Source: Candidatus Saccharimonadota bacterium (GTDB lineage: Archaea; Micrarchaeota; Micrarchaeia; Micrarchaeales; Micrarchaeaceae). Taken from it: a stretch of 32,000 nucleotides of DNA. Position numbers and translations under genes: made by a program. The stretch is taken from the NCBI GenBank assembly GCA_963705375.1, contig OY970071.1, forward strand, positions 600,001-632,000, written 5' to 3'. This document shows, piece after piece, positions 12,384-19,333 of this stretch (the stretch's first letter is position 1; each line of letters opens with the position of its first letter). The notes beneath the pieces are model-generated. The model saw nothing but the letters and a program-made list of their open reading frames with translations, was not told the DNA's origin and did not search any database.

Positions 12384-12537
12384 TTCAGCACTCAAGATCT
12401 TCGTCACAGCGTGAGCTCAGCTACAGTGCGATATTCATCATTGTAATTGGATTGGTTACAACCAATAAATAGTTTACTGTGCTGCGCATTCCGCATAGGT
12501 ATTTATATTTTAAGACGCGGAATTGTTCGGTGTTTTT

Positions 12538-12858
12538 GTGGGGATAACAAATGTAACCGACGCGAACTTTGAAGCTGAAGTTCTGAAATCCAAGATACCT
12601 GTGGTGGTCGACGTATGGGCACCGTGGTGTGGGCCGTGCAGGGCGTACGGGCCGATAGTGGAGGAGGTCGAAAAAGAGTATGCTGGAAAGGTCAAGTTTG
12701 TGAAGCTTGATGCTGATGAGAACGACAAAACCACGCAGAAATACGAGATAATGAGCATACCGACAACGATGCTGGTAGAGAAAGGTCAGATAAAGGCGGT
12801 GAACGTAGGGGCCATGCAGAAAGAGGCCCTCAAGAAATGGCTGCAGAGCAACCTATAG
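12538..12858 (+). CDS. trxA: Thioredoxin
   Basis: WAPWCGPCRAYGP active site. The TATA-like tatttatatttta at ~12500-12512 favours GTG 12538 over TTG 12523. Confidence 0.9.
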   Translation: MGITNVTDANFEAEVLKSKIPVVVDVWAPWCGPCRAYGPIVEEVEKEYAGKVKFVKLDADENDKTTQKYEIMSIPTTMLVEKGQIKAVNVGAMQKEALKKWLQSNL

Positions 12859-12875
12859 ACAAGCGGCGAGAGTGT

Positions 12876-13253
12876 ATGGAAATGCAACGAGAGAATTTTG
12901 ATAAAAAAGAAGAAAAAAACAAAGAACAGAACGGCACGCAGGACACGTGCATGAGCATAGCAGGAATAGATTTTGTCCGTGAAGGGCGTGACGCTGACAT
13001 CTATTGGATATCAAAAGAGATCCTAACCAAAAAGGACATTGAGGCGCTGGCGAAGGGGATATTGAAGACAGAATTTTGTATTGCTAACTATGCCGAAGAT
13101 GGGCGCGCGGTCCTAGTTGGAAAGAGCATTGAGGGGGACACACAACATCCAGATGGAGAAGTGCAGACCGGTAACAATTACAGGCACTACTTGCGATCGG
13201 TCACGAACATCTGCTTCACACATGGTTTATACACGGATGAAGACGAAGATTGA
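12876..13253 (+). CDS. Hypothetical protein (P1) whose domain is paralogous to the N-terminus of 15404-16069
   Basis: IAGIDFVREGRDADIYWISKEILTKKDIEALAKGILKTEFCIANY aligns with IAGFDFVMVRTGTGVCRVSDRALTRSDLENLSSSIANTDLHVANY. The start is uncertain: 12837, 12876 or 12949. Confidence 0.5.
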   Translation: MEMQRENFDKKEEKNKEQNGTQDTCMSIAGIDFVREGRDADIYWISKEILTKKDIEALAKGILKTEFCIANYAEDGRAVLVGKSIEGDTQHPDGEVQTGNNYRHYLRSVTNICFTHGLYTDEDED

Positions 13254-13291
13254 CACGCCGGCGTTCGAACCGCTTGCAGTACTGAATGTGA
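13249..13291 (+). pseudogene. Orphan 43-nt fragment of a hisS allele (codons 40-54 equivalent)
   Basis: 37/43 nt are identical to hisS 18176-18218. It reads IDTPAFEPLAVLN in one frame. All five differences within the 13 shared codons are at synonymous third positions. There is no HisRS similarity on either side. Confidence 0.7.
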
Positions 13292-13296
13292 GGATA

Positions 13297-14286
13297 TCAG
13301 GAGGGCTCGTGAAATTCCAACTTGGTAACTTGGGAGTCCATACAATTGAGTTCGAGAAAGAACTTTCTTGCCTCTTGATACAAGGTAGCAGCAATTCTTC
13401 CATCATCAATAGCTGGTGTCAGCACCAAAGGAAGCATCTTTTGCATTGAGTCTAATGCCTGCCCTGCCAGATTGTTTAGTTCGGAATCTACAGATGGAAT
13501 TTCTAACGCTCTTTCTGGCTCTAACGTATACATTCTAAGGGCATAATCGCGTGCAATAATATTAGTCACATGGTGAAGCGTAGCATCCTCATCATTTCCC
13601 ATAGACGCCTCAATTGCATCTATAGAAGAGGGATGATTTTCACTTCCCATCAGTCTAAACTGACTAGACACGAAGGACATTATACCATCTATCGGTCTTT
13701 CGGCCCCGGCGATGCTTTCGTTTAACTTTTGAACAAACGAGTCGTTTGAATTCAGGAGCCTTGCCTTTAAGGTGAGCATAGGTTCAGAATTCGAAAGCAA
13801 AGGAATGGAAGCAAGTAAGGCAGCTTCAAGCAACATAGTTGATCTATCGTTTGAATTTGAATGGGCCATAATATTTAGACATGTATTAACACGGCCACTA
13901 AATGTGTCAATAATACTCTCTATGAATTCCTGTCGTGGATTTTCAAGCGGACGCGCGTTACGGATAGTATCATTTATCTCATTTACAGGCTTGGCAAAAT
14001 TTATTAACAAATTGTTGCCGTTGTTAAGTGTAGCTTCGCTGATTCGAGGAACAACATAAAGCGAACCCTTAGCAGCGTGATTAACCCTCCCTATAATCTT
14101 AGCAAGCACAGGATCGCTTTGCTTTTCTGCATTAGCAAGCGTCAGGTTTTCAGATCGTGAGTTCTTTATGTCATTTACTACATGTGCTACTCCCTCCGCA
14201 AAAGGCTTCACATAATCCTTTGAGCTAGCAACTTGGCCAATGGCTTGGAACGGTTGAGACACTATCTTTTGAGCATCCAGAGGCAC
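13297..14286 (-). CDS. Hypothetical protein, 329 aa (ORFan)
   Basis: Complete ORF. GTG 14286 is preceded by GGTGAT + cat on the minus strand, and a TATA-like ttatatttatat lies ~30 nt upstream. Confidence 0.6.
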   Translation of the reverse strand: MPLDAQKIVSQPFQAIGQVASSKDYVKPFAEGVAHVVNDIKNSRSENLTLANAEKQSDPVLAKIIGRVNHAAKGSLYVVPRISEATLNNGNNLLINFAKPVNEINDTIRNARPLENPRQEFIESIIDTFSGRVNTCLNIMAHSNSNDRSTMLLEAALLASIPLLSNSEPMLTLKARLLNSNDSFVQKLNESIAGAERPIDGIMSFVSSQFRLMGSENHPSSIDAIEASMGNDEDATLHHVTNIIARDYALRMYTLEPERALEIPSVDSELNNLAGQALDSMQKMLPLVLTPAIDDGRIAATLYQEARKFFLELNCMDSQVTKLEFHEPS

Positions 14287-14363
14287 ATGATCACCATAAC
14301 TCTGCTTTACGCATATAAATATAACTTTTGCTTCTGAGTGCCATACTGTGGGACCTCAGAAGA

Positions 14364-15095
14364 TCACAGAACATCTTTTGTCCCCTGCACCTGCAGTTCG
14401 GCCAATTGAAGCGTAAGGGCTTTGATTTTTCCTTCAACGTCACGCTTTGTTTCGCCATCATCCATAATCTTCACAATTTCCTCGTACGTTTTTATTTCAT
14501 CGGCCATCAACATGGAGGCGTTTTCGGGAAACTTATTTCTTTCCTCTGCAAGCCTATTGACAGTCGCAAATAGGTCTTTAATTGTCTGCACGTTAAGTAT
14601 GTGACGCTCCCATTCTTCTAAGCCCGCAATAGTATCCAGAATTGGTGCGTTGTCAGATCCGCAATGCTCTGCTAAACTCTTCCATAGATCTTTAGCAGCA
14701 GTGACGAAGCGTATATCATAAGGGTGCATGTTTGCAGCAGATAATGCTTTCCAAGCTGAATGTTCCGTAGACTCGTATTCTGAAAGAGCATTCAGCTGTA
14801 CCATAACGTCGTCAACTGCATCTTCTACGACCGAAGGCGTACGTAGCAGTTTAGAAGTATCTGTAGAATTTTCATCAACCGATCCGGCAGAATTGGCAAT
14901 CTCCAGTTCATTCTGAGATAATAGGTCCCGTCTAATATCGACAAGGTGTGGCACAGGACCTTGAGCGTTTCCAGGGCCGGGAAGATTTTCAACATTCAGC
15001 CTATCAAGGGTACTTTCGTCTCGAGATGCACGATCTTCTGCACCTCTTTTCTCCTTATCAACGGGCATATGCTCAGGCAGTAGTATATACGGCAT
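14364..15095 (-). CDS. Hypothetical acidic protein, 243 aa (ORFan); the start may be ATG 15068
   Basis: Complete ORF. A minus-strand ATAAATAT box at ~15101-15108 sits too close to ATG 15095 and fits a leaderless start at 15068 better. Confidence 0.55.
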   Translation of the reverse strand: MPYILLPEHMPVDKEKRGAEDRASRDESTLDRLNVENLPGPGNAQGPVPHLVDIRRDLLSQNELEIANSAGSVDENSTDTSKLLRTPSVVEDAVDDVMVQLNALSEYESTEHSAWKALSAANMHPYDIRFVTAAKDLWKSLAEHCGSDNAPILDTIAGLEEWERHILNVQTIKDLFATVNRLAEERNKFPENASMLMADEIKTYEEIVKIMDDGETKRDVEGKIKALTLQLAELQVQGTKDVL

Positions 15096-15403
15096 AGGAG
15101 ATATTTATGGGTATGGCAATTTTGGGTCATTGAATTGGTATATAAACCTTTGCATTATGGGGTTGTAGATCTAGAGTTCTGACTGGCATAGAATCTATTC
15201 TTTCGCGAGGGAGGATATGATGGATCCATTTTGCCTGTTTTCTCGCCATCGATCTGACTGTTCCCAGATTAAGTGTTCGCACGACCACTTTATCGCTAAG
15301 GGCACTTATCCGCTTTGACTATAGGAACTTATTTTGAGATAAGACAGCTAGGAGTTATAGAGGAAAGTCATAAGTATTTAAAAAATAAACCGATTGTGAT
15401 TAA

Positions 15404-16069
15404 ATGGAGAGCACGACAGTACAAAGGAATATTCAGAAGATCGCAGGTTTTGATTTTGTAATGGTCAGAACAGGTACAGGCGTGTGCCGGGTATCAGATA
15501 GGGCATTGACCAGAAGTGATTTGGAGAACCTGTCGAGTTCGATAGCGAACACTGACTTGCATGTTGCTAATTATAAGGAAGTGGCAATAATGTACCGCTC
15601 AAGCCTCCGTGCAGGGCAAGTTTCTTCGTTTGAACACGCGTTTGAAGAAGGCGTTGCGACTTGTGACATAGGGTTCGAGATGGACGAAGCAGGGCCGTAT
15701 AAGATCCTTGACCATGACATCAAGACACTGTTGGAAGAACAACAAAGATGGTTCAACCTAACAATTAGGGACGTAGACGACATAGTAAAAAACAAACTAT
15801 TCGGCGAAGCAGAGTCAGACAGGGTTCTGCTGCATTCTGGAAAAGGCCATGTGACCCTTAGAACGATGAGCATTGGCGGCAATGCTTATCTCGAAATTTC
15901 TGCAGGATCCATTTTCAAAGGGGATGATAGAGGTCACGTTATTTTGCTTGGAAATACAGAAGAAGCAGCAGCACGGCAAGGCAACAAGGAGATGCCAACG
16001 AACAACTATGAAGACCTTATGAGGAGAGACCCTGACACCTTCATAGGCAACCACAAATATTGCAGATAA
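15404..16069 (+). CDS. Hypothetical protein (P2), 221 aa, N-terminal domain paralogous to P1
   Basis: Complete ORF with a TATTTAAAAAATAAA box at 15375-15389. See the alignment with P1. Confidence 0.6.
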   Translation: MESTTVQRNIQKIAGFDFVMVRTGTGVCRVSDRALTRSDLENLSSSIANTDLHVANYKEVAIMYRSSLRAGQVSSFEHAFEEGVATCDIGFEMDEAGPYKILDHDIKTLLEEQQRWFNLTIRDVDDIVKNKLFGEAESDRVLLHSGKGHVTLRTMSIGGNAYLEISAGSIFKGDDRGHVILLGNTEEAAARQGNKEMPTNNYEDLMRRDPDTFIGNHKYCR

Positions 16070-16082
16070 ATACAGTGGGCAG

Positions 16083-16457
16083 GTGTGCCTGCCCAAAAGT
16101 CATATATATCTCCTGCGCAGTAAATATCATACAAGGCAAAGTGAGAGTGATGACGGACCAACACGAAGTGTGCAATCATATGCACATATTGATGGCTGCT
16201 GTGCCTTGCAACTAAGGCCAATCATAGCAAGAGCTCTCAACAAAAACCAGATTCTGATTCTTAATGCAGTCAACTCTAACACAGAATACCGAATATACAG
16301 CACAACCGCTCTTCTGAACAAACTAAGCTCGGAGCGAGGTGTGCCGACTTCTACACTAAGACTAAACACGAGCATACTCGAAGAGTTGGGCCTGATAGAG
16401 AAGAAGTCGGCCATGCTTACTGAGATTGGAAGACTGATACTTTCGATTATGATGTGA
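16083..16457 (+). CDS. Winged-helix (MarR/ArsR-like) DNA-binding protein; start uncertain
   Basis: The C-terminal ~75 aa, ILILNAVNSNTEYRIYSTTALLNKLSSERGVPTSTLRLNTSILEELGLIEKKSAMLTEIGRLIL, fit a wHTH pattern. The N-terminal part from GTG 16083 looks non-globular, so a later TTG or GTG start is possible. Confidence 0.55.
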   Translation: MCLPKSHIYLLRSKYHTRQSESDDGPTRSVQSYAHIDGCCALQLRPIIARALNKNQILILNAVNSNTEYRIYSTTALLNKLSSERGVPTSTLRLNTSILEELGLIEKKSAMLTEIGRLILSIMM

Positions 16458-16461
16458 TAGA

Positions 16462-17310
16462 ATGACAAAAACATATTTGGTTACGAAAGATCTGGTAGAA
16501 ACGCTGAGAAACAAGTACGTGCTGGAAATACCAGACACTCTAGCCATTCAAGTCAGAGGCATAGAGAATGAGTTCCTAAAGAAGTTCTGGGAAACCATCG
16601 ATTTGCCGGAAAGTGTGGAGAAGAAAACAGTTGATGCACAAGAACTTGCGCGTATGCTTTCTGAAAAGCTCACTGGGCTGCTAAGATGTGAATCCAAATG
16701 CAACGACTACTACATAAGCATGGACAGGATATACCTTCCAGAAGCCCCTGCGTTCTTGGAAGTAACAAGGATCACAAACCGAGAAACTGGAAAGTATGAG
16801 ATAGGGCCGCGCGCAGGCTGCGGCCCGCTTAATGCCCAAATAGCAAGCATGGGATTAGACCGCGGAAGCAAGATCACACTGGCAGACGTTGGTGCGTTCA
16901 GTGGAGGCACGCTGAACAAAATCTGCTTCATGTTCGAACAGCAAGGCATAACAATTTCCAACATATGTTTAGGCGTCGCAAATTCTGCAATTGCCACGAT
17001 AGAAGACTCTGGCATAAAAGACACGCTTACTGTGGCGCTTTGGTTTGATTTTTACGAATGGATAGAACTAAGGAAGCTATTGATTGACGGGAGGCTTGTA
17101 GGTGTTAGAAATGATGGCATACGGGAGTACATACCCTACTATTTGGGAGACCTGGAGGATTGGGCCAGCATACCTGCAGACAAAGTGGAAGAAACGGCAG
17201 AGCTATGCAAGACATATAGTGAACGGCTCATTTGCCTCCTTAGAGAGTATGGGACATCTGAACGCGAAATAAAAGAAAGAATAGGCGTTCCTGTCAAAAT
17301 GACAGGTTAG
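16462..17310 (+). CDS. Hypothetical protein with a possible type-I phosphoribosyltransferase-like PRPP loop, 282 aa
   Basis: GTGAT 16454-16458 plus 3 nt precedes the ATG. The motif SKITLADVGAFSGGTLNKI resembles the hydrophobic-strand-D-x-x-x-x-(T/S)G-G-T PRPP-binding loop. The fold assignment is inference only. Confidence 0.6.
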   Translation: MTKTYLVTKDLVETLRNKYVLEIPDTLAIQVRGIENEFLKKFWETIDLPESVEKKTVDAQELARMLSEKLTGLLRCESKCNDYYISMDRIYLPEAPAFLEVTRITNRETGKYEIGPRAGCGPLNAQIASMGLDRGSKITLADVGAFSGGTLNKICFMFEQQGITISNICLGVANSAIATIEDSGIKDTLTVALWFDFYEWIELRKLLIDGRLVGVRNDGIREYIPYYLGDLEDWASIPADKVEETAELCKTYSERLICLLREYGTSEREIKERIGVPVKMTG

Positions 17311-17393
17311 GTTTAAGTGAGTAACCATTGTAAAAGATAGATACACGTAAGTGTTTAGCGATACGGTCTAACAGTATTTGAATGGTTGAGGCA

Positions 17394-17945
17394 ATGAGAA
17401 GATTACAAATAGGAGTGATGGGATCAGCAGCGGATTTAAAATATTCAAAATCTGCTGAAATGGCAGCGACAAGGCTGGGGGAGTTGATAGCAAAGAACAA
17501 CGGCATACTGATATTCGGCGCAGAAAAGGATGGCGATTCACTTTCAGCTGCTGCTTGCAGGGGTGCAAAAAAGGCAGGAGGGCTCACAGTCGGAATAACA
17601 TATAATAAAGGAAAGGACGTACGGCAGAAAGAAGATGTTGATGTGATAATTCCGTGTGGATTGGAGCGTGGAGGCGGCAGAGAGTTTGTATTGACGCTTG
17701 CCTGCGACGCAATAATAGCAATAAGCGGCGGCTCTGGAACCCTTAATGAAATAGCTGTAGCGTACCAGGCAGACATCCCAATAATAGTGCTTGGCGGGTT
17801 CGGAGGCTGGGCCGAAGAGCTGGCAGATAGATATCTAGACGGCAGGAAACGCAGAAAGGCCATCCTTGCCAAGACACCTGATGAAGCAGCAGGATTGGCG
17901 TTTAAAGAAGCCGGACTTTATGCCAAGAAGTATGATGGTGCATAA
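17394..17945 (+). CDS. TIGR00725-type SLOG/LOG-like Rossmann protein
   Basis: IGVMGSA...GILIFGA...AACRGAKKAGGLTVGI...DVIIPCG...AIIAISGGSGTLNEIAVAY...PIIVLGG follows the LOG/DprA-like (GGxGTxxE) family pattern. GAGG lies upstream of ATG 17394. Confidence 0.8.
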   Translation: MRRLQIGVMGSAADLKYSKSAEMAATRLGELIAKNNGILIFGAEKDGDSLSAAACRGAKKAGGLTVGITYNKGKDVRQKEDVDVIIPCGLERGGGREFVLTLACDAIIAISGGSGTLNEIAVAYQADIPIIVLGGFGGWAEELADRYLDGRKRRKAILAKTPDEAAGLAFKEAGLYAKKYDGA

Positions 17946-18058
17946 ACCAAGTAGTTCTGGAAAGGACTCTTGTAGAGCATTACCGCAGGAACCGAAGTTA
18001 TTGCGACCCATCCATAATAAAAAGATTCTCAGAGAAAATGTAACTACGTTGTGATACA

Positions 18059-19333
18059 GTGCCAGAAATACCCTTCCCACGTGGAGTTAGAGACCTGATG
18101 CCGAATGAGGCACTATTCAGAAATGAGCTGCTTAAGAGTGTAGAGAGCACTTTCCAGCTCTTCGGCTTTTCCGCCATTGATACTCCGGCATTTGAACCGC
18201 TTGCAGTTCTGAATGCGAAAAATGCCATTGGAGAAGATACCAAGTTGATATACGAGCTAAAGGAAGAAAACCTTGGCCTCCGCTACGACCTCACAGTGTC
18301 GCTTGCACGCTACATGGCCATGCACCAAGAATTGCCGATGCCGTTCAAGCGCTACCAGATAGGCAAGGTCTGGCGCAGGGAGGAACCTCAGAAGCTGAGA
18401 TACCGGGAGTTCACGCAGGCAGATGCAGACATAGTCGGCGGAACCAGATCGCTTGCTGATGCAGAAGCGATAGCGGCAGGGGCGTACGCGCTAGAAAGAA
18501 TAGGCATCGATTACGTAATAAAGATAAATGACAGAGCGCTCATGGAGAAGGTGTTTGAAAAGATAGGCGTAGACAAAGAGTTGTTCGTAGGCGCCGCAAG
18601 GGCTATAGACAAACTCGAAAAGGTAGGGGAAGACCGGGTGTCTGAGGCTTTGAGAGGCCTCGGAATAGGCAACGACGCTGTGGATGGCATAACAGAACTG
18701 GCAAGGCTTGGCGGATCGAACACATACAAAATGTCGTACATAGACGAGCTGCTCGGTGATGAAAAAGCCGCGAAGGATTTGAAGGACACACTTCTGGCGC
18801 TTGCACAGTACAGTGTGCATGGCGATGCTATAGTCGACTTCTCTTTGATGAGAGGGCTCGATTACTACACTGGAATCGTGTTCGAAATCAAGGCAAAGAG
18901 CGACCTGATTGGACCATCCATTGCTGGCGGAGGCAGGTACGACAACCTTGTCGGCATATACGCAGGCAAAGCAATGCCAGCTGTCGGAGTTTCTTTAGGA
19001 ATAGAACGGATACTTCAGTTGCTTAATTATTCCTCATCGACAGAGTGCAGCTATGCGAAGGTCTTCGTCGCATACGTCAAGGATAAAAACTACAGCTACG
19101 CATTGAAAGTGGCAAATACGCTAAGAGCAAAGAGCATACCAACTGAGATAAACATATCATCACGTAACCTCGCAAACCAGCTCGCGCATGCAAACAGCTT
19201 GAAGATAAAGTATGTGATAATAATCGGCGATGTCGAGGAAAAGGCCGGAAAGCTAAAGCTGCGCAATCTTGTGAGCGGGGACGAGCAGATTATCGGAGTT
19301 GAAGATGCTGCAAATATGATAAAAGGGGTTTGA
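18059..19333 (+). CDS. hisS: Histidine--tRNA ligase
   Basis: Class II motifs are present: RYREFTQADADIVG and AGGGRYDNLVG. A C-terminal anticodon-binding domain is present. GTG 18059 is preceded by GTGAT 18051-18055 plus 3 nt. Confidence 0.95.
   Translation: MPEIPFPRGVRDLMPNEALFRNELLKSVESTFQLFGFSAIDTPAFEPLAVLNAKNAIGEDTKLIYELKEENLGLRYDLTVSLARYMAMHQELPMPFKRYQIGKVWRREEPQKLRYREFTQADADIVGGTRSLADAEAIAAGAYALERIGIDYVIKINDRALMEKVFEKIGVDKELFVGAARAIDKLEKVGEDRVSEALRGLGIGNDAVDGITELARLGGSNTYKMSYIDELLGDEKAAKDLKDTLLALAQYSVHGDAIVDFSLMRGLDYYTGIVFEIKAKSDLIGPSIAGGGRYDNLVGIYAGKAMPAVGVSLGIERILQLLNYSSSTECSYAKVFVAYVKDKNYSYALKVANTLRAKSIPTEINISSRNLANQLAHANSLKIKYVIIIGDVEEKAGKLKLRNLVSGDEQIIGVEDAANMIKGV

Follow-up and report, generated by a model that had tools for sequence, protein, structure and literature searches.

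Two-gene units made up of a SLOG-superfamily gene and a phosphoribosyltransferase (PRTase) gene have been predicted by comparative genomics for the YpsA clade, beside conflict systems (Burroughs et al., 2015, as cited in PMC6459960). The Rossmann-like SLOG fold family also comprises the LOG enzymes, i.e., cytokinin riboside 5'-monophosphate phosphoribohydrolases, with the catalytic pair Arg99/Glu122 in C. glutamicum LOG (PMC4979012), as well as the Moco carrier protein (MCP) and TM1055. Type I PRTases (APRT, HGPRT, OPRT, and UPRT) form the clan of PF00156 and have a core alpha/beta fold with a 5-phosphoribosyl-binding strand-loop-helix. With respect to transcriptional control, the small stand-alone winged helix-turn-helix (wHTH) protein TK0271/Tar of Thermococcus kodakarensis binds TGGACA-N8-TGTCCA upstream of BRE/TATA (PMC6737238).

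The locus described here is a trio of genes in an archaeal stretch of 32,000 nucleotides (the window, i.e., the whole stretch of DNA that was analyzed). It resembles the YpsA-PRTase pairs in joining a SLOG-superfamily gene and a PRTase-like gene in a unit, but it differs from them in that its SLOG protein belongs to SLOG cluster 4 and not to YpsA, in the PRTase family involved, in its archaeal hosts, and in its linkage to hisS, tRNA-His, HAD, PNP, and PfkB genes. Overall, the module looks like histidine-linked ribose-nucleotide metabolism and not like defense or signaling.

The gene trio and its core proteins

Three same-strand ORFs of 124, 282, and 187 amino acids (aa) occupy positions 16083 to 16457, 16462 to 17310, and 17382 to 17945 of the window (plus strand). 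These coordinates and the gap of 4 nt between the first two, both given in a first-pass annotation of this DNA, are borne out by the ORF list, and the two motifs that it quoted, KITLADVGAFSGGTL and ISGGSGTLNEIAVAY, are found in the ORFs. Family-profile matches of ORF1 and ORF3 and the homologs of ORF2 (170 representatives among 1.84 billion, at an E value of ≤1e-3) indicate that none of the three ORFs arose by chance and that each is a genuine gene.

The 282-aa protein encoded at 16462 to 17310, here termed PRTL, is the core of the module. It had been called PRTase-like on account of a PRPP-loop-like motif, and both the fold model and the structure searches agree with this call. The AF2 model is confident (pLDDT, 90.4; pTM, 0.87); its best Foldseek matches are APRT, HGPRT, PurR, and XPRT, with E values down to 4.7e-5 and probabilities of 0.98 to 1.00, and the top 37 structures in VIA-align are all type I PRTases (Z of 7.4 to 10.9). 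At the level of the model, a divergent type I PRTase fold with the core alpha/beta architecture is thereby confirmed for PRTL. The PRPP-binding motif of type I PRTases is made up of a hydrophobic strand, two acidic residues, and a G- and T-containing loop for the 5'-phosphate. In hhalign, the PRTL segment ITLADVGAFSGGTL falls on the PRPP loops of canonical PRTases encoded by the same genome, the strand-loop-helix aligning with ILLVDDISDRGDTL; its conserved residues are D142, the first of the two acidic ones, G148, and T150. PRTL differs from the type I PRTases by about 80 additional N-terminal residues, by a long helical C-terminal part, and by a Val at the second acidic position of the PRPP motif. 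UPRTs likewise have a single acidic residue at that position. Across the wide PRTL family, the polar residues R103, R117, Q126, D142, R204, D205, and Y226 are nearly invariant.

A further difference from the type I PRTases is that the window protein has no match in Pfam or NCBIfam, PF00156 being without a match at E values of ≤0.1; the PRTL family profile gave only noise against PDB sequences (E of >0.3). Among 111 wider relatives, 21 match PF00156 at an E value of ≤0.01 (best, 8.7e-7), the four whose scores were compared with the gathering cut-off all lying under it, and sub-threshold matches to UPRTase and PRTase-CE also occur, e.g., weak ones to PF24390 (PRTase-CE) in nine of the relatives. 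HAD fusions (442 to 496 aa; P0029, P0037, and L026) are the only fused forms of PRTL that were seen, and the search returned no proteins of at least 495 residues. In the PRTL tree, the deep branching is unsettled and the window protein sits on a long branch, so that no donor can be named.

More specific roles for PRTL were considered and rejected. A substitute PRPP synthetase is unsupported because PRTL and PF13793 show no complementary pattern: genome G000 lacks PF13793, yet 8 of the 14 PRTL-carrying genomes have it. For a missing uracil PRTase the comparison is uninformative, since PF14681 is absent from G000 and likewise exceeds the cut-off in 0 of 10 relatives, with or without PRTL. A link to the pentose-bisphosphate/RuBisCO pathway was dropped, as G000 has no RuBisCO.

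PurR of B. subtilis consists of a wHTH plus a PRTase domain, and its structure (1o57) is among the top Foldseek matches of PRTL. A split sensor of this kind, in which PRTL, as a subunit that binds PRPP or a nucleotide without catalysis, would regulate transcription together with the adjacent wHTH protein, would also fit the narrow gap between the two genes and the loss of the second acidic residue. We nevertheless regard it as very improbable, given that most PRTL loci have no wHTH gene, that PRTL is fused to HAD phosphatases, that many of its polar residues are nearly invariant across a wide family, and that the Tar family works alone in Thermococcus (PMC6737238).

The third gene (17382 to 17945) had been assigned to the LOG-type/SLOG proteins, and the profile searches sustain this assignment. 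PF18306 (SLOG cluster 4) is matched with 112.4 bits, exceeding the gathering threshold of 26.3 (E of 1.9e-32), and TIGR00725 with 88.7 bits (E of 2.7e-25), which misses the curated cut-off of 106.9 and marks the protein as related but under the equivalog threshold. Within the ORF from 17382, the start is probably ATG 17394, because homologs start with MRKLQIGVMG. The nearest solved relatives are 6y01, MCP (2iz5), and TM1055 (1rcu), with profile E values of 1e-37 to 1e-39 to MCP-type structures; these relatives have no demonstrated hydrolase activity, and the presence of a non-catalytic cofactor carrier (MCP) among them counts against the enzymatic explanation favored below. The likeness to the LOG enzymes lies in the GGxGTxxE loop, the full motif PGGxGTxxE reading SGGSGTLNE with Ser for the leading Pro, and in the Arg/Glu pair. 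This pair, R100 and E123, shows no variation among 17 PRTL-linked homologs, and its spacing of 23 residues is that of C. glutamicum LOG. Judged from these residues, the PRTL-linked SLOG protein keeps the LOG catalytic pair and the phosphate loop, and hydrolase activity is predicted. Unlike LOG, MCP, and TM1055, the SLOG protein is here always paired with a PRTase-like gene.

Regulator, operator, and leader

ORF1 had been described as a small winged-helix protein, and it does match the NCBIfam family TK0271_fam (NF053753) at 7.8e-16 over residues 44 to 123. Since the wHTH domain spans these residues, the real start is probably TTG 16206 (gene at 16206 to 16457, plus strand) or GTG 16170 rather than GTG 16083, from which the mechanical ORF runs. 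With 58.1 bits, the protein misses the NF053753 cut-off of 130 bits, and its sequence places it as a distant member of the TK0271/Tar family; in PADLOC, it matches the C-terminal wHTH of Csa3 at 3e-5. Homologs with 34 to 46% identity lie directly upstream of PRTL in L026 and in the L052/54/55/58/60/65 group and directly upstream of a PRTase-like gene in G003.

A putative Tar-type operator, the palindrome TGGGCA-N8-TGCCCA, is located at 16076 to 16095, 6 nt upstream of the TATA box ATATATAT (16102 to 16109, plus strand), which is preceded by a BRE-like CCCAAAA and whose TATATA is invariant in the upstream alignments of six lineages. The window wHTH shares with TK0271/Tar the small stand-alone format, the NCBIfam family, and the palindrome architecture TGGxCA-N8-TGxCCA just upstream of BRE/TATA, the position expected of an activator. 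Palindromes are found at the equivalent position in the L055 group (TGGTCA-N8-TGTCCA) and in G003 (AGGGCA-N8-TGTCCA), and the box at 16076 to 16095 is the only one of the Tar type that adjoins a TATA box in the whole 1.21-Mb genome. The genome has a second Tar-like box at 486 kb, but this one is intragenic and has probably arisen by chance. The differences from TK0271/Tar are that the window half-sites deviate at one position, that the wHTH score is well under the equivalog cut-off, that the predicted target, instead of aromatic amino acid genes, is an operon of PRTase-like and SLOG genes, and that the regulator gene lies inside its own regulated operon, behind a conserved uORF. Neither the operator nor the uORF leader had been noticed in the first-pass annotation.

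The leader contains the motif GTGATG-N5-CCAACAC (16147 to 16164, plus strand), which is conserved across loci and is unique both in the window, where 0.01 occurrences are expected, and in the genome. It is exact in 11 of 82 loci, at 10 places, and lies just upstream of the wHTH gene at the nine places that have one and upstream of the PRTase-like gene in G007. A 21-codon uORF starting with M-T-D-Q-H extends from 16150 to 16215 (plus strand), at the same position in five lineages; relative to the wHTH gene, it is read one base ahead, and its stop codon overlaps with the probable start of that gene. The ATG-started uORFs have 21 codons in the window, L055, L026, and G007 and 23 codons in G003, and across the five lineages only M-x-x-Q-H is conserved, His codon 5 always being CAC. 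The window uORF has three scattered His codons, of which only His5 is conserved.

At six loci, PRTL is preceded by a uORF ending in HH(H)-X-stop, a pattern that was chosen after the data had been seen; 1,000 shuffles gave a mean of 0.65 and a maximum of 4, and the reverse strand gave 1. The uORF stop is followed by a small GC hairpin and then a T-rich stretch at five of these six loci, with z values for the hairpins of +0.35 to -3.8. Generic HH-containing uORFs upstream of PRTL are not significantly frequent (7 of 39 loci versus 3.1 ± 1.6 in shuffles and 9 on the reverse strand), and an Rfam search of the region from 12.8 to 18.2 kb found no family at an E value of ≤1. A reading of the window sequence also places a 7-bp hairpin, with a T-rich stretch after it, at the 3' end of PRTL (17290 to 17306, plus strand); it may serve in processing or partial termination.

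The short uORFs with two or three terminal His codons, a hairpin, and a T-rich stretch at some PRTL loci of the Nanoarchaeota type are reminiscent of the enterobacterial hisL attenuators. The PRTL leaders differ from these in that they carry two or three His codons only and have no demonstrated alternative structures, and the window uORF differs in that only one of its His codons is conserved and that its overlap is with the start of a regulator gene, not with a terminator. To our knowledge, leader-peptide attenuation is not established in Archaea, and the His-codon leaders, if acting as attenuators, would be the first that we know of.

Gene neighborhoods and the link to histidine

The neighborhood survey comprised 50 distinct PRTL loci, all of them from DPANN archaea where labeled. 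A SLOG gene is present in the same array at 34 of these, so that both observations on which the first-pass proposal depended, the PRTase-like fold of the 282-aa protein and the co-occurrence of its homologs with SLOG/LOG genes, stand. SLOG is replaced by a HAD phosphatase at seven loci, often together with a nucleoside phosphorylase (PNP), and is itself sometimes fused or adjacent to PfkB or HAD (PfkB~SLOG in L007 and HAD~SLOG in L010); the tree reveals partner swapping among close PRTL relatives. The exact trio of wHTH, PRTL, and SLOG genes is shared by six metagenomic contigs, all from a single closely related group.

At 17 of the 50 loci, hisS belongs to the array, following SLOG or PRTL and often overlapping by 1 to 4 nt, and at 11 loci tRNA-His lies directly upstream of PRTL on the same strand; every tRNA gene located ≤310 nt upstream of PRTL is a tRNA-His gene. 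Gene overlaps of 4 nt hint that the products may form a physical complex. The array PRTL-SLOG-hisS of the window ends with hisS (18059 to 19333, plus strand; Pfam tRNA-synt_His, 3e-44), which is the only histidyl-tRNA synthetase gene of the genome and was vertically inherited (83% identity to G002 and 71% to G001). From these neighborhoods, the core pair of PRTL and a LOG-like protein is seen to recur across tiny DPANN archaea beside tRNA-His/hisS. The place of hisS in the array and the tRNA-His upstream at many loci had been overlooked before. Two features of the window count against our preferred explanation: hisS has its own TATA-like box and is preceded by a gap of 113 nt, and tRNA-His is located about 414 kb from the array.

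The first-pass annotation had proposed a nucleotide-derived metabolite or signaling module and had pointed to nucleotide-centric conflict and signaling systems. In a system of this kind, the PRTase would make a nucleotide-derived signal that SLOG senses or degrades. The YpsA-clade SLOG-PRTase pairs beside conflict systems (PMC6459960), the weak matches of nine relatives to PF24390, a family mentioned in a retron survey, and the patchy, HGT-prone distribution of PRTL would be compatible with this. Such a system is not supported, since PADLOC (undescribed systems lie outside its library) matched neither PRTL nor SLOG, the wHTH alone being similar to that of Csa3/CARF, PHROGs yielded one weak DprA-like match and none for PRTL, the recurrent partners HAD, PNP, and PfkB are metabolic, none of the 50 loci has an effector, toxin, or sensor partner, and translational coupling connects the array with a housekeeping aminoacyl-tRNA synthetase gene. 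We consider it hardly credible. The supposed nature of the block as mobile-element cargo is not supported either, because G003, whose PRTase-like gene is of a different family, has wHTH, PRTase-like, SLOG, and hisS genes in the corresponding chromosomal position, where thioredoxin and hisS are the flanking genes. A simple site-specific integration into hisS was also rejected: codons 1 to 39 of hisS are missing in front of the 43-nt repeat, and hisS is native from end to end.

The module is patchy (14 of 401 genomes of the phylum), and PRTL and SLOG are nearly identical in G344 and G187, the genomes of two different families. Such a distribution would suit a generic nucleobase or nucleoside salvage that hitchhikes on the hisS/tRNA-His transcription unit and has no functional tie to histidine; all partner domains are of enzyme types that are standard in salvage, the window hisS has a promoter-like element of its own, and unrelated genes are packed into operons in DPANN genomes. 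We judge this alternative distinctly unlikely, because the adjacency of tRNA-His and hisS recurs at HisRS identities of only 30 to 36%, that of tRNA-His also recurs with HAD-type partners, a different PRTase-like family is found at the same place in G003 and G007, and some leaders end in His-His.

Histidine might instead be involved chemically, the "base" being histidine or an imidazole precursor, e.g., in an N-ribosyl or phosphoribosyl imidazole compound from the host, which SLOG or HAD plus PNP would free when histidine is short, thus providing a supply route for an auxotroph. The tight and recurrent linkage to tRNA-His/hisS, the His codons in some leaders, and the M20 peptidases that adjoin the array in G019, G190, and L050 speak for such a route; the M20 family includes Xaa-His dipeptidases. 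The absence of HisG and HisD from the genome likewise speaks for it. However, a PRTL ribosylating histidine would use up histidine in starvation, there is no sequence pointer to the substrate, and we know of no PRTase or LOG enzyme that has histidine as its substrate; overall, this chemistry has a minor chance of being correct.

Proposed function and significance

On balance, we lean toward the view that the three genes constitute a self-contained operon under the control of an activator, with a core enzyme pair that acts on phosphoribosyl compounds and is genomically tied to histidine-tRNA charging. The best reading of the chemistry is a histidine-linked turnover or salvage of ribotides. PRTL would make (or reverse) an N-glycosidic bond between PRPP and some base, and SLOG would hydrolyze a ribonucleoside 5'-monophosphate to the free base and ribose 5-phosphate, HAD plus PNP or PfkB plus SLOG being possible other routes to the same products. 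PRTL and SLOG would accordingly form a ribotide turnover or salvage unit and not an immune system, and the wHTH protein is predicted to activate the operon from the palindrome. Judging by the His-codon leader uORFs and by the linkage of the module to hisS and tRNA-His, its expression may follow the supply of histidine or His-tRNA.

Further points count against this explanation. In the PRPP motif, Val stands in place of the second acidic residue, and the window PRTL has no Pfam PRTase match; a forward PRTase beside a ribotide hydrolase would amount to a futile cycle if both acted on the same base. As HisG and HisD are absent from the genome, a biosynthetic use is not obvious. With respect to the leaders, the His codons of the window uORF are scattered, the count of generic HH-containing uORFs is insignificant, the HH-X-stop pattern is post hoc, and the hairpins are small.

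DPANN archaea and CPR bacteria are regarded as dependent on their hosts, with hardly any biosynthesis of their own. A bolder and tentative proposal is that DPANN share a histidine-responsive pathway, with a new PRTase family and a LOG-like enzyme placed between tRNA-His and hisS, which may be switched either by His-codon leader uORFs (ribosome-mediated attenuation) or by an activator of the Tar type whose gene follows a conserved uORF and which may supply or spare histidine where its biosynthesis is absent. Handles for experiments are provided by the new PRTase family with its confident structural model, the LOG-like partner with its catalytic residues intact, and the predicted archaeal activator-operator pair with its conserved uORF. 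A conserved and tightly regulated enzyme pair that is wired to tRNA-His and hisS would indicate a metabolism hidden from standard annotation, because its core enzyme PRTL is labeled "hypothetical protein" in every public record that gives it a name.

Fold and partner of the PRTase-like protein

The first-pass annotation had described a trio of a winged-helix (wHTH), a PRTase-like and a TIGR00725 gene, and all three open reading frames are present together with both quoted motifs. ORF1 (16083-16457, 124 aa) is followed by ORF2 (16462-17310, 282 aa; PRTL), which starts 4 nt past its end, by ORF3 (17382-17945, 187 aa) and by hisS (18059-19333). The winged-helix assignment of ORF1 is confirmed by a match of residues 44-123 to the TK0271 family (7.8e-16, NCBIfam) and by a resemblance to the Csa3 C-terminal wHTH, and ORF3 proved to be SLOG/LOG-like as proposed, with a match to SLOG cluster 4 (PF18306, 1.9e-32) and one below the cut-off to TIGR00725.

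PRTL itself had zero matches in Pfam or NCBIfam. The family is rare (170 representative clusters at E<=1e-3 among 1.84 billion), its close relatives stem from DPANN metagenome-assembled genomes, and all public records that carry a name read "hypothetical protein." An AlphaFold2 model based on 13 homologues is confident (pLDDT 90.4, pTM 0.87), and its top Foldseek matches in the PDB are solely type I phosphoribosyltransferases (PRTases) and regulatory relatives, namely APRT (4.7e-5), HGPRT, PurR, XPRT, and OPRT. The first 37 matches of an independent all-against-all structural search were type I PRTases or PRPP synthetases (Z 7.4-10.9), and the predicted structure and both searches thus support the PRTase-like fold suggested for this protein. 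In a profile alignment, ITLADVGAFSGGTL coincides with the PRPP loops of the organism's own APRT-like and HGPRT-like proteins, with the first acidic residue, Gly, and Thr retained and the second acidic residue replaced by Val. Among 111 wider relatives, PF00156 is matched by 21 (E<=0.01), UPRTase by 7 and PRTase-CE by 9, and R103, R117, Q126, D142, G148, R204, D205, G210, and Y226 are nearly invariant. Judged from the alignment, this conservation of polar and glycine positions fits an enzyme; that PRTL and the wHTH form a split PurR-like sensor, a reading for which the PurR match speaks, is very improbable.

Among the proteins of this genome are an OPRT~OMP-decarboxylase fusion, an APRT-like protein, and a small HGPRT-like protein (C1: 16.3-17.8 kb, 827.4 kb, and 934.4 kb). 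The N-domain of PRPP synthetase (PF13793), present in 14/14 control genomes and 238/401 genomes of the phylum, was not detected in it; a role of PRTL as a substitute for PRPP synthetase was checked and is not supported.

The nearest solved relatives of the SLOG protein are of the Moco-carrier type (6y01, 2iz5) or TM1055 (1rcu), with LOG enzymes further away. R100 and E123 do not vary among 17 PRTL-linked SLOG homologues, and their spacing of 23 residues equals that of Arg99 and Glu122, the catalytic residues of the Corynebacterium glutamicum LOG (PMC4979012). E123 lies inside SGGSGTLNE, a variant of the LOG motif PGGxGTxxE (PMC4979012). PRTL would form or reverse a PRPP-dependent N-glycosidic bond, and SLOG would split a ribonucleoside monophosphate into base and ribose 5-phosphate.

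Partner exchange and the link to histidine

Scans of a genome collection, of metagenomes, and of 401 genomes of the same phylum yielded 50 distinct PRTL loci, which were annotated with BLAST and Pfam. The expected co-occurrence with SLOG genes holds for 34 of them, in which a SLOG cluster 4 gene stands in the PRTL array and usually overlaps the PRTL stop by 4 nt. A HAD phosphatase substitutes for SLOG in 7/50 loci, 4 of which have a PNP_UDP_1 phosphorylase next; hisS directly follows PRTL in 2/50, and another 7/50 are too short or have unrecognised neighbours. Gene fusions join PRTL to HAD (P0029, P0037, and L026), HAD to SLOG (L010), and a PfkB-like protein to SLOG (L007), and in L011, L033, and L061 a stand-alone PfkB-like gene separates PRTL from SLOG. 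The PRTL tree intermixes closely related proteins with a SLOG-type and with a HAD-type partner, so that the partners look interchangeable; HAD plus PNP, PfkB plus SLOG, and SLOG alone would be alternative routes from a nucleotide or nucleoside to free base and ribose phosphate.

A conflict or signalling function, as initially considered, was not borne out: the 50 loci have no recurrent effector-like, toxin, or sensor gene near PRTL, PADLOC has no match for PRTL or SLOG, and PHROGs returned none for PRTL and a single weak DprA-like match for SLOG. We regard such a system as extremely improbable.

Several arrays have further neighbours. M20-family peptidase genes flank those of L003 (4077-5294), L029 (3-563), and L050 (759-1046), and in the window's own genome the orthologue (48% identical) lies ~29 kb upstream of the trio, beyond the window. 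A conserved ~300-aa protein beside HAD genes inside the array (L003:5986-6891 in G019; L029:3669-4592 in G190), for which Pfam, PADLOC, and PHROG gave nothing, may be an additional pathway member. The PRTL proteins of L027 (G344) and L028 (G187) are almost identical and their SLOG proteins agree within one percentage point in identity to that of the window; the genomes are assigned to two different families, a sign of recent horizontal transfer or of a binning artefact.

The hisS gene lies inside the PRTL array at 17 loci, frequently with 1-4 nt overlaps with SLOG, and the encoded HisRS proteins are just 30-36% identical to that of the window. A same-strand tRNA-His(GTG) was found by ARAGORN 29-307 nt upstream of PRTL at 11 loci, including HAD-type loci without SLOG and hisS, and tRNAs at that position are tRNA-His without exception. 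In two Nanoarchaeota-type loci, tRNA-His and PRTL are closely preceded by LAGLIDADG-domain ORFs (L005:6826-7980 and L009:6674-7543). In the window, hisS is separated by 113 nt from the gene before it and has a TATA-like box of its own, and the tRNA-His gene is ~414 kb distant from the trio. Generic salvage hitch-hiking on hisS could accommodate this arrangement; set beside the tRNA-His genes of loci that lack hisS, it is improbable.

A short upstream ORF (uORF) ending in HH(H)-X-stop precedes PRTL at 6 loci from ~4 lineages (shuffles, mean 0.65 loci, maximum 4 in 1000; reverse strand, 1), a pattern that was defined post hoc, after inspection of the data. The generic count of "HH in a uORF" upstream of PRTL was not significant. 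In 5/6 of these loci a GC hairpin of 4-7 bp, individually weak, extends from the stop codon and is followed by a T-rich stretch. The window's genome has a single hisS copy and lacks HisG and HisD, and its match to His_biosynth (PF00977) is just weak and partial, so that the organism is probably a histidine auxotroph.

Overall, we lean toward the trio being an operon for the turnover or salvage of ribotides that is linked to histidine; the activities of both enzymes, the substrate, the direction of flux, and the histidine response are what we infer. A ribotide pathway specific to histidine or imidazole would share the tRNA-His and hisS adjacency; it appears rather unlikely.

The slot between thioredoxin and hisS

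Synteny was compared with two genomes of the same genus (G001, G002) and three of the same family (G003, G005, G007), with the window's slot (12859-18058) set against L046, L047, L048, and L081. The conserved frame consists of thioredoxin (12523-12858), a variable slot, hisS, a 173-aa gene, and cysS. The slot holds 20 bp in G005, ~1 kb of unrelated genes with a GNAT-like ORF in G002 or an LmbE-like ORF in G001, and in G003 a wHTH with 46% identity, a protein of 266 aa whose loop (LLDDVVASGGT) is canonical, and SLOG; the window has four ORFan genes followed by wHTH-PRTL-SLOG. The second PRTase-like family of G003 also occurs in G007, upstream of a SLOG gene. Since HisRS of the window is native (83% identity to the G002 protein across the full length), the module has long been present at this locus, in varying form. 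The presumed mobile context hence does not hold as simple recent cargo; the slot is nevertheless recombinationally active, as the ORFan block and a hisS-like repeat show.

This 43-nt direct repeat (13249-13291 and 18176-18218, 86% identical) represents hisS codons 40-53, copied to the left margin of the ORFan block. The two copies have in common substitutions (to A, V, and N at the protein level) that are absent from hisS of G002, G001, and G005. Simple site-specific integration was rejected as its origin, because hisS codons 1-39 are missing ahead of the left copy. Two ORFan proteins (12837-13253 and 15404-16069) with a common N terminus of ~58 residues (34% identity) flank the hisS-like fragment on either side.

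Operator-like box, leader, and uORF

The sequence 5' of the wHTH gene shows nucleotide conservation across lineages that have just 34-46% identity in their proteins. It comprises a Tar-type palindrome, TGGGCA-N8-TGCCCA (16076-16095), a BRE-like CCCAAAA between palindrome and TATA box (16102-16109), and, 37 nt past the latter, the leader motif GTGATG-N5-CCAACAC (16147-16164). The palindrome resembles in architecture and position the experimentally defined site of Tar (TK0271), TGGACA-N8-TGTCCA upstream of BRE/TATA (PMC6737238), and is a predicted operator. Corresponding boxes are TGGTCA-N8-TGTCCA in the L055 group and AGGGCA-N8-TGTCCA in G003. The box combined with a TATA element is unique in the 1.21-Mb genome, and so is the leader motif. 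The latter was matched in 11/82 loci at 10 places, 9 of them immediately 5' of a wHTH gene and the one in G007 5' of the PRTase-like gene.

A uORF starts at the ATG within GTGATG and has 21 codons (window, L055, L026, and G007) or 23 (G003), with only M-x-x-Q-H conserved across lineages. Wherever a wHTH follows, i.e., outside G007, its frame is one base behind that of the uORF, and the conserved wHTH part begins in overlap with the uORF stop or no more than a few codons away from it. In L055:87-230, and likewise in L052, L054, L058, L060, and L065, the conserved wHTH N terminus is LRPVLLRSLNKNQ, and the frame upstream of it contains neither ATG nor GTG nor TTG. Its translation must use a non-canonical start codon or re-initiate after the overlapping 21-codon uORF, and lacking a canonical start codon it probably depends on the uORF. 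The wHTH would activate its own operon via the palindrome, and the uORF would set the amount of regulator made, a step that its conserved His codon may render sensitive to histidine.

SLOG-PRTase pairs have already been noted by comparative genomics in connection with the YpsA clade (PMC6459960). In the literature library searched, we found no published description of the PRTL family or its coupling to SLOG cluster 4, nor of the tRNA-His/hisS linkage or the Tar-type operator with its uORF. The window contributes an archaeal version of the module, from Micrarchaeota and other DPANN lineages, with archaeal-type regulation.
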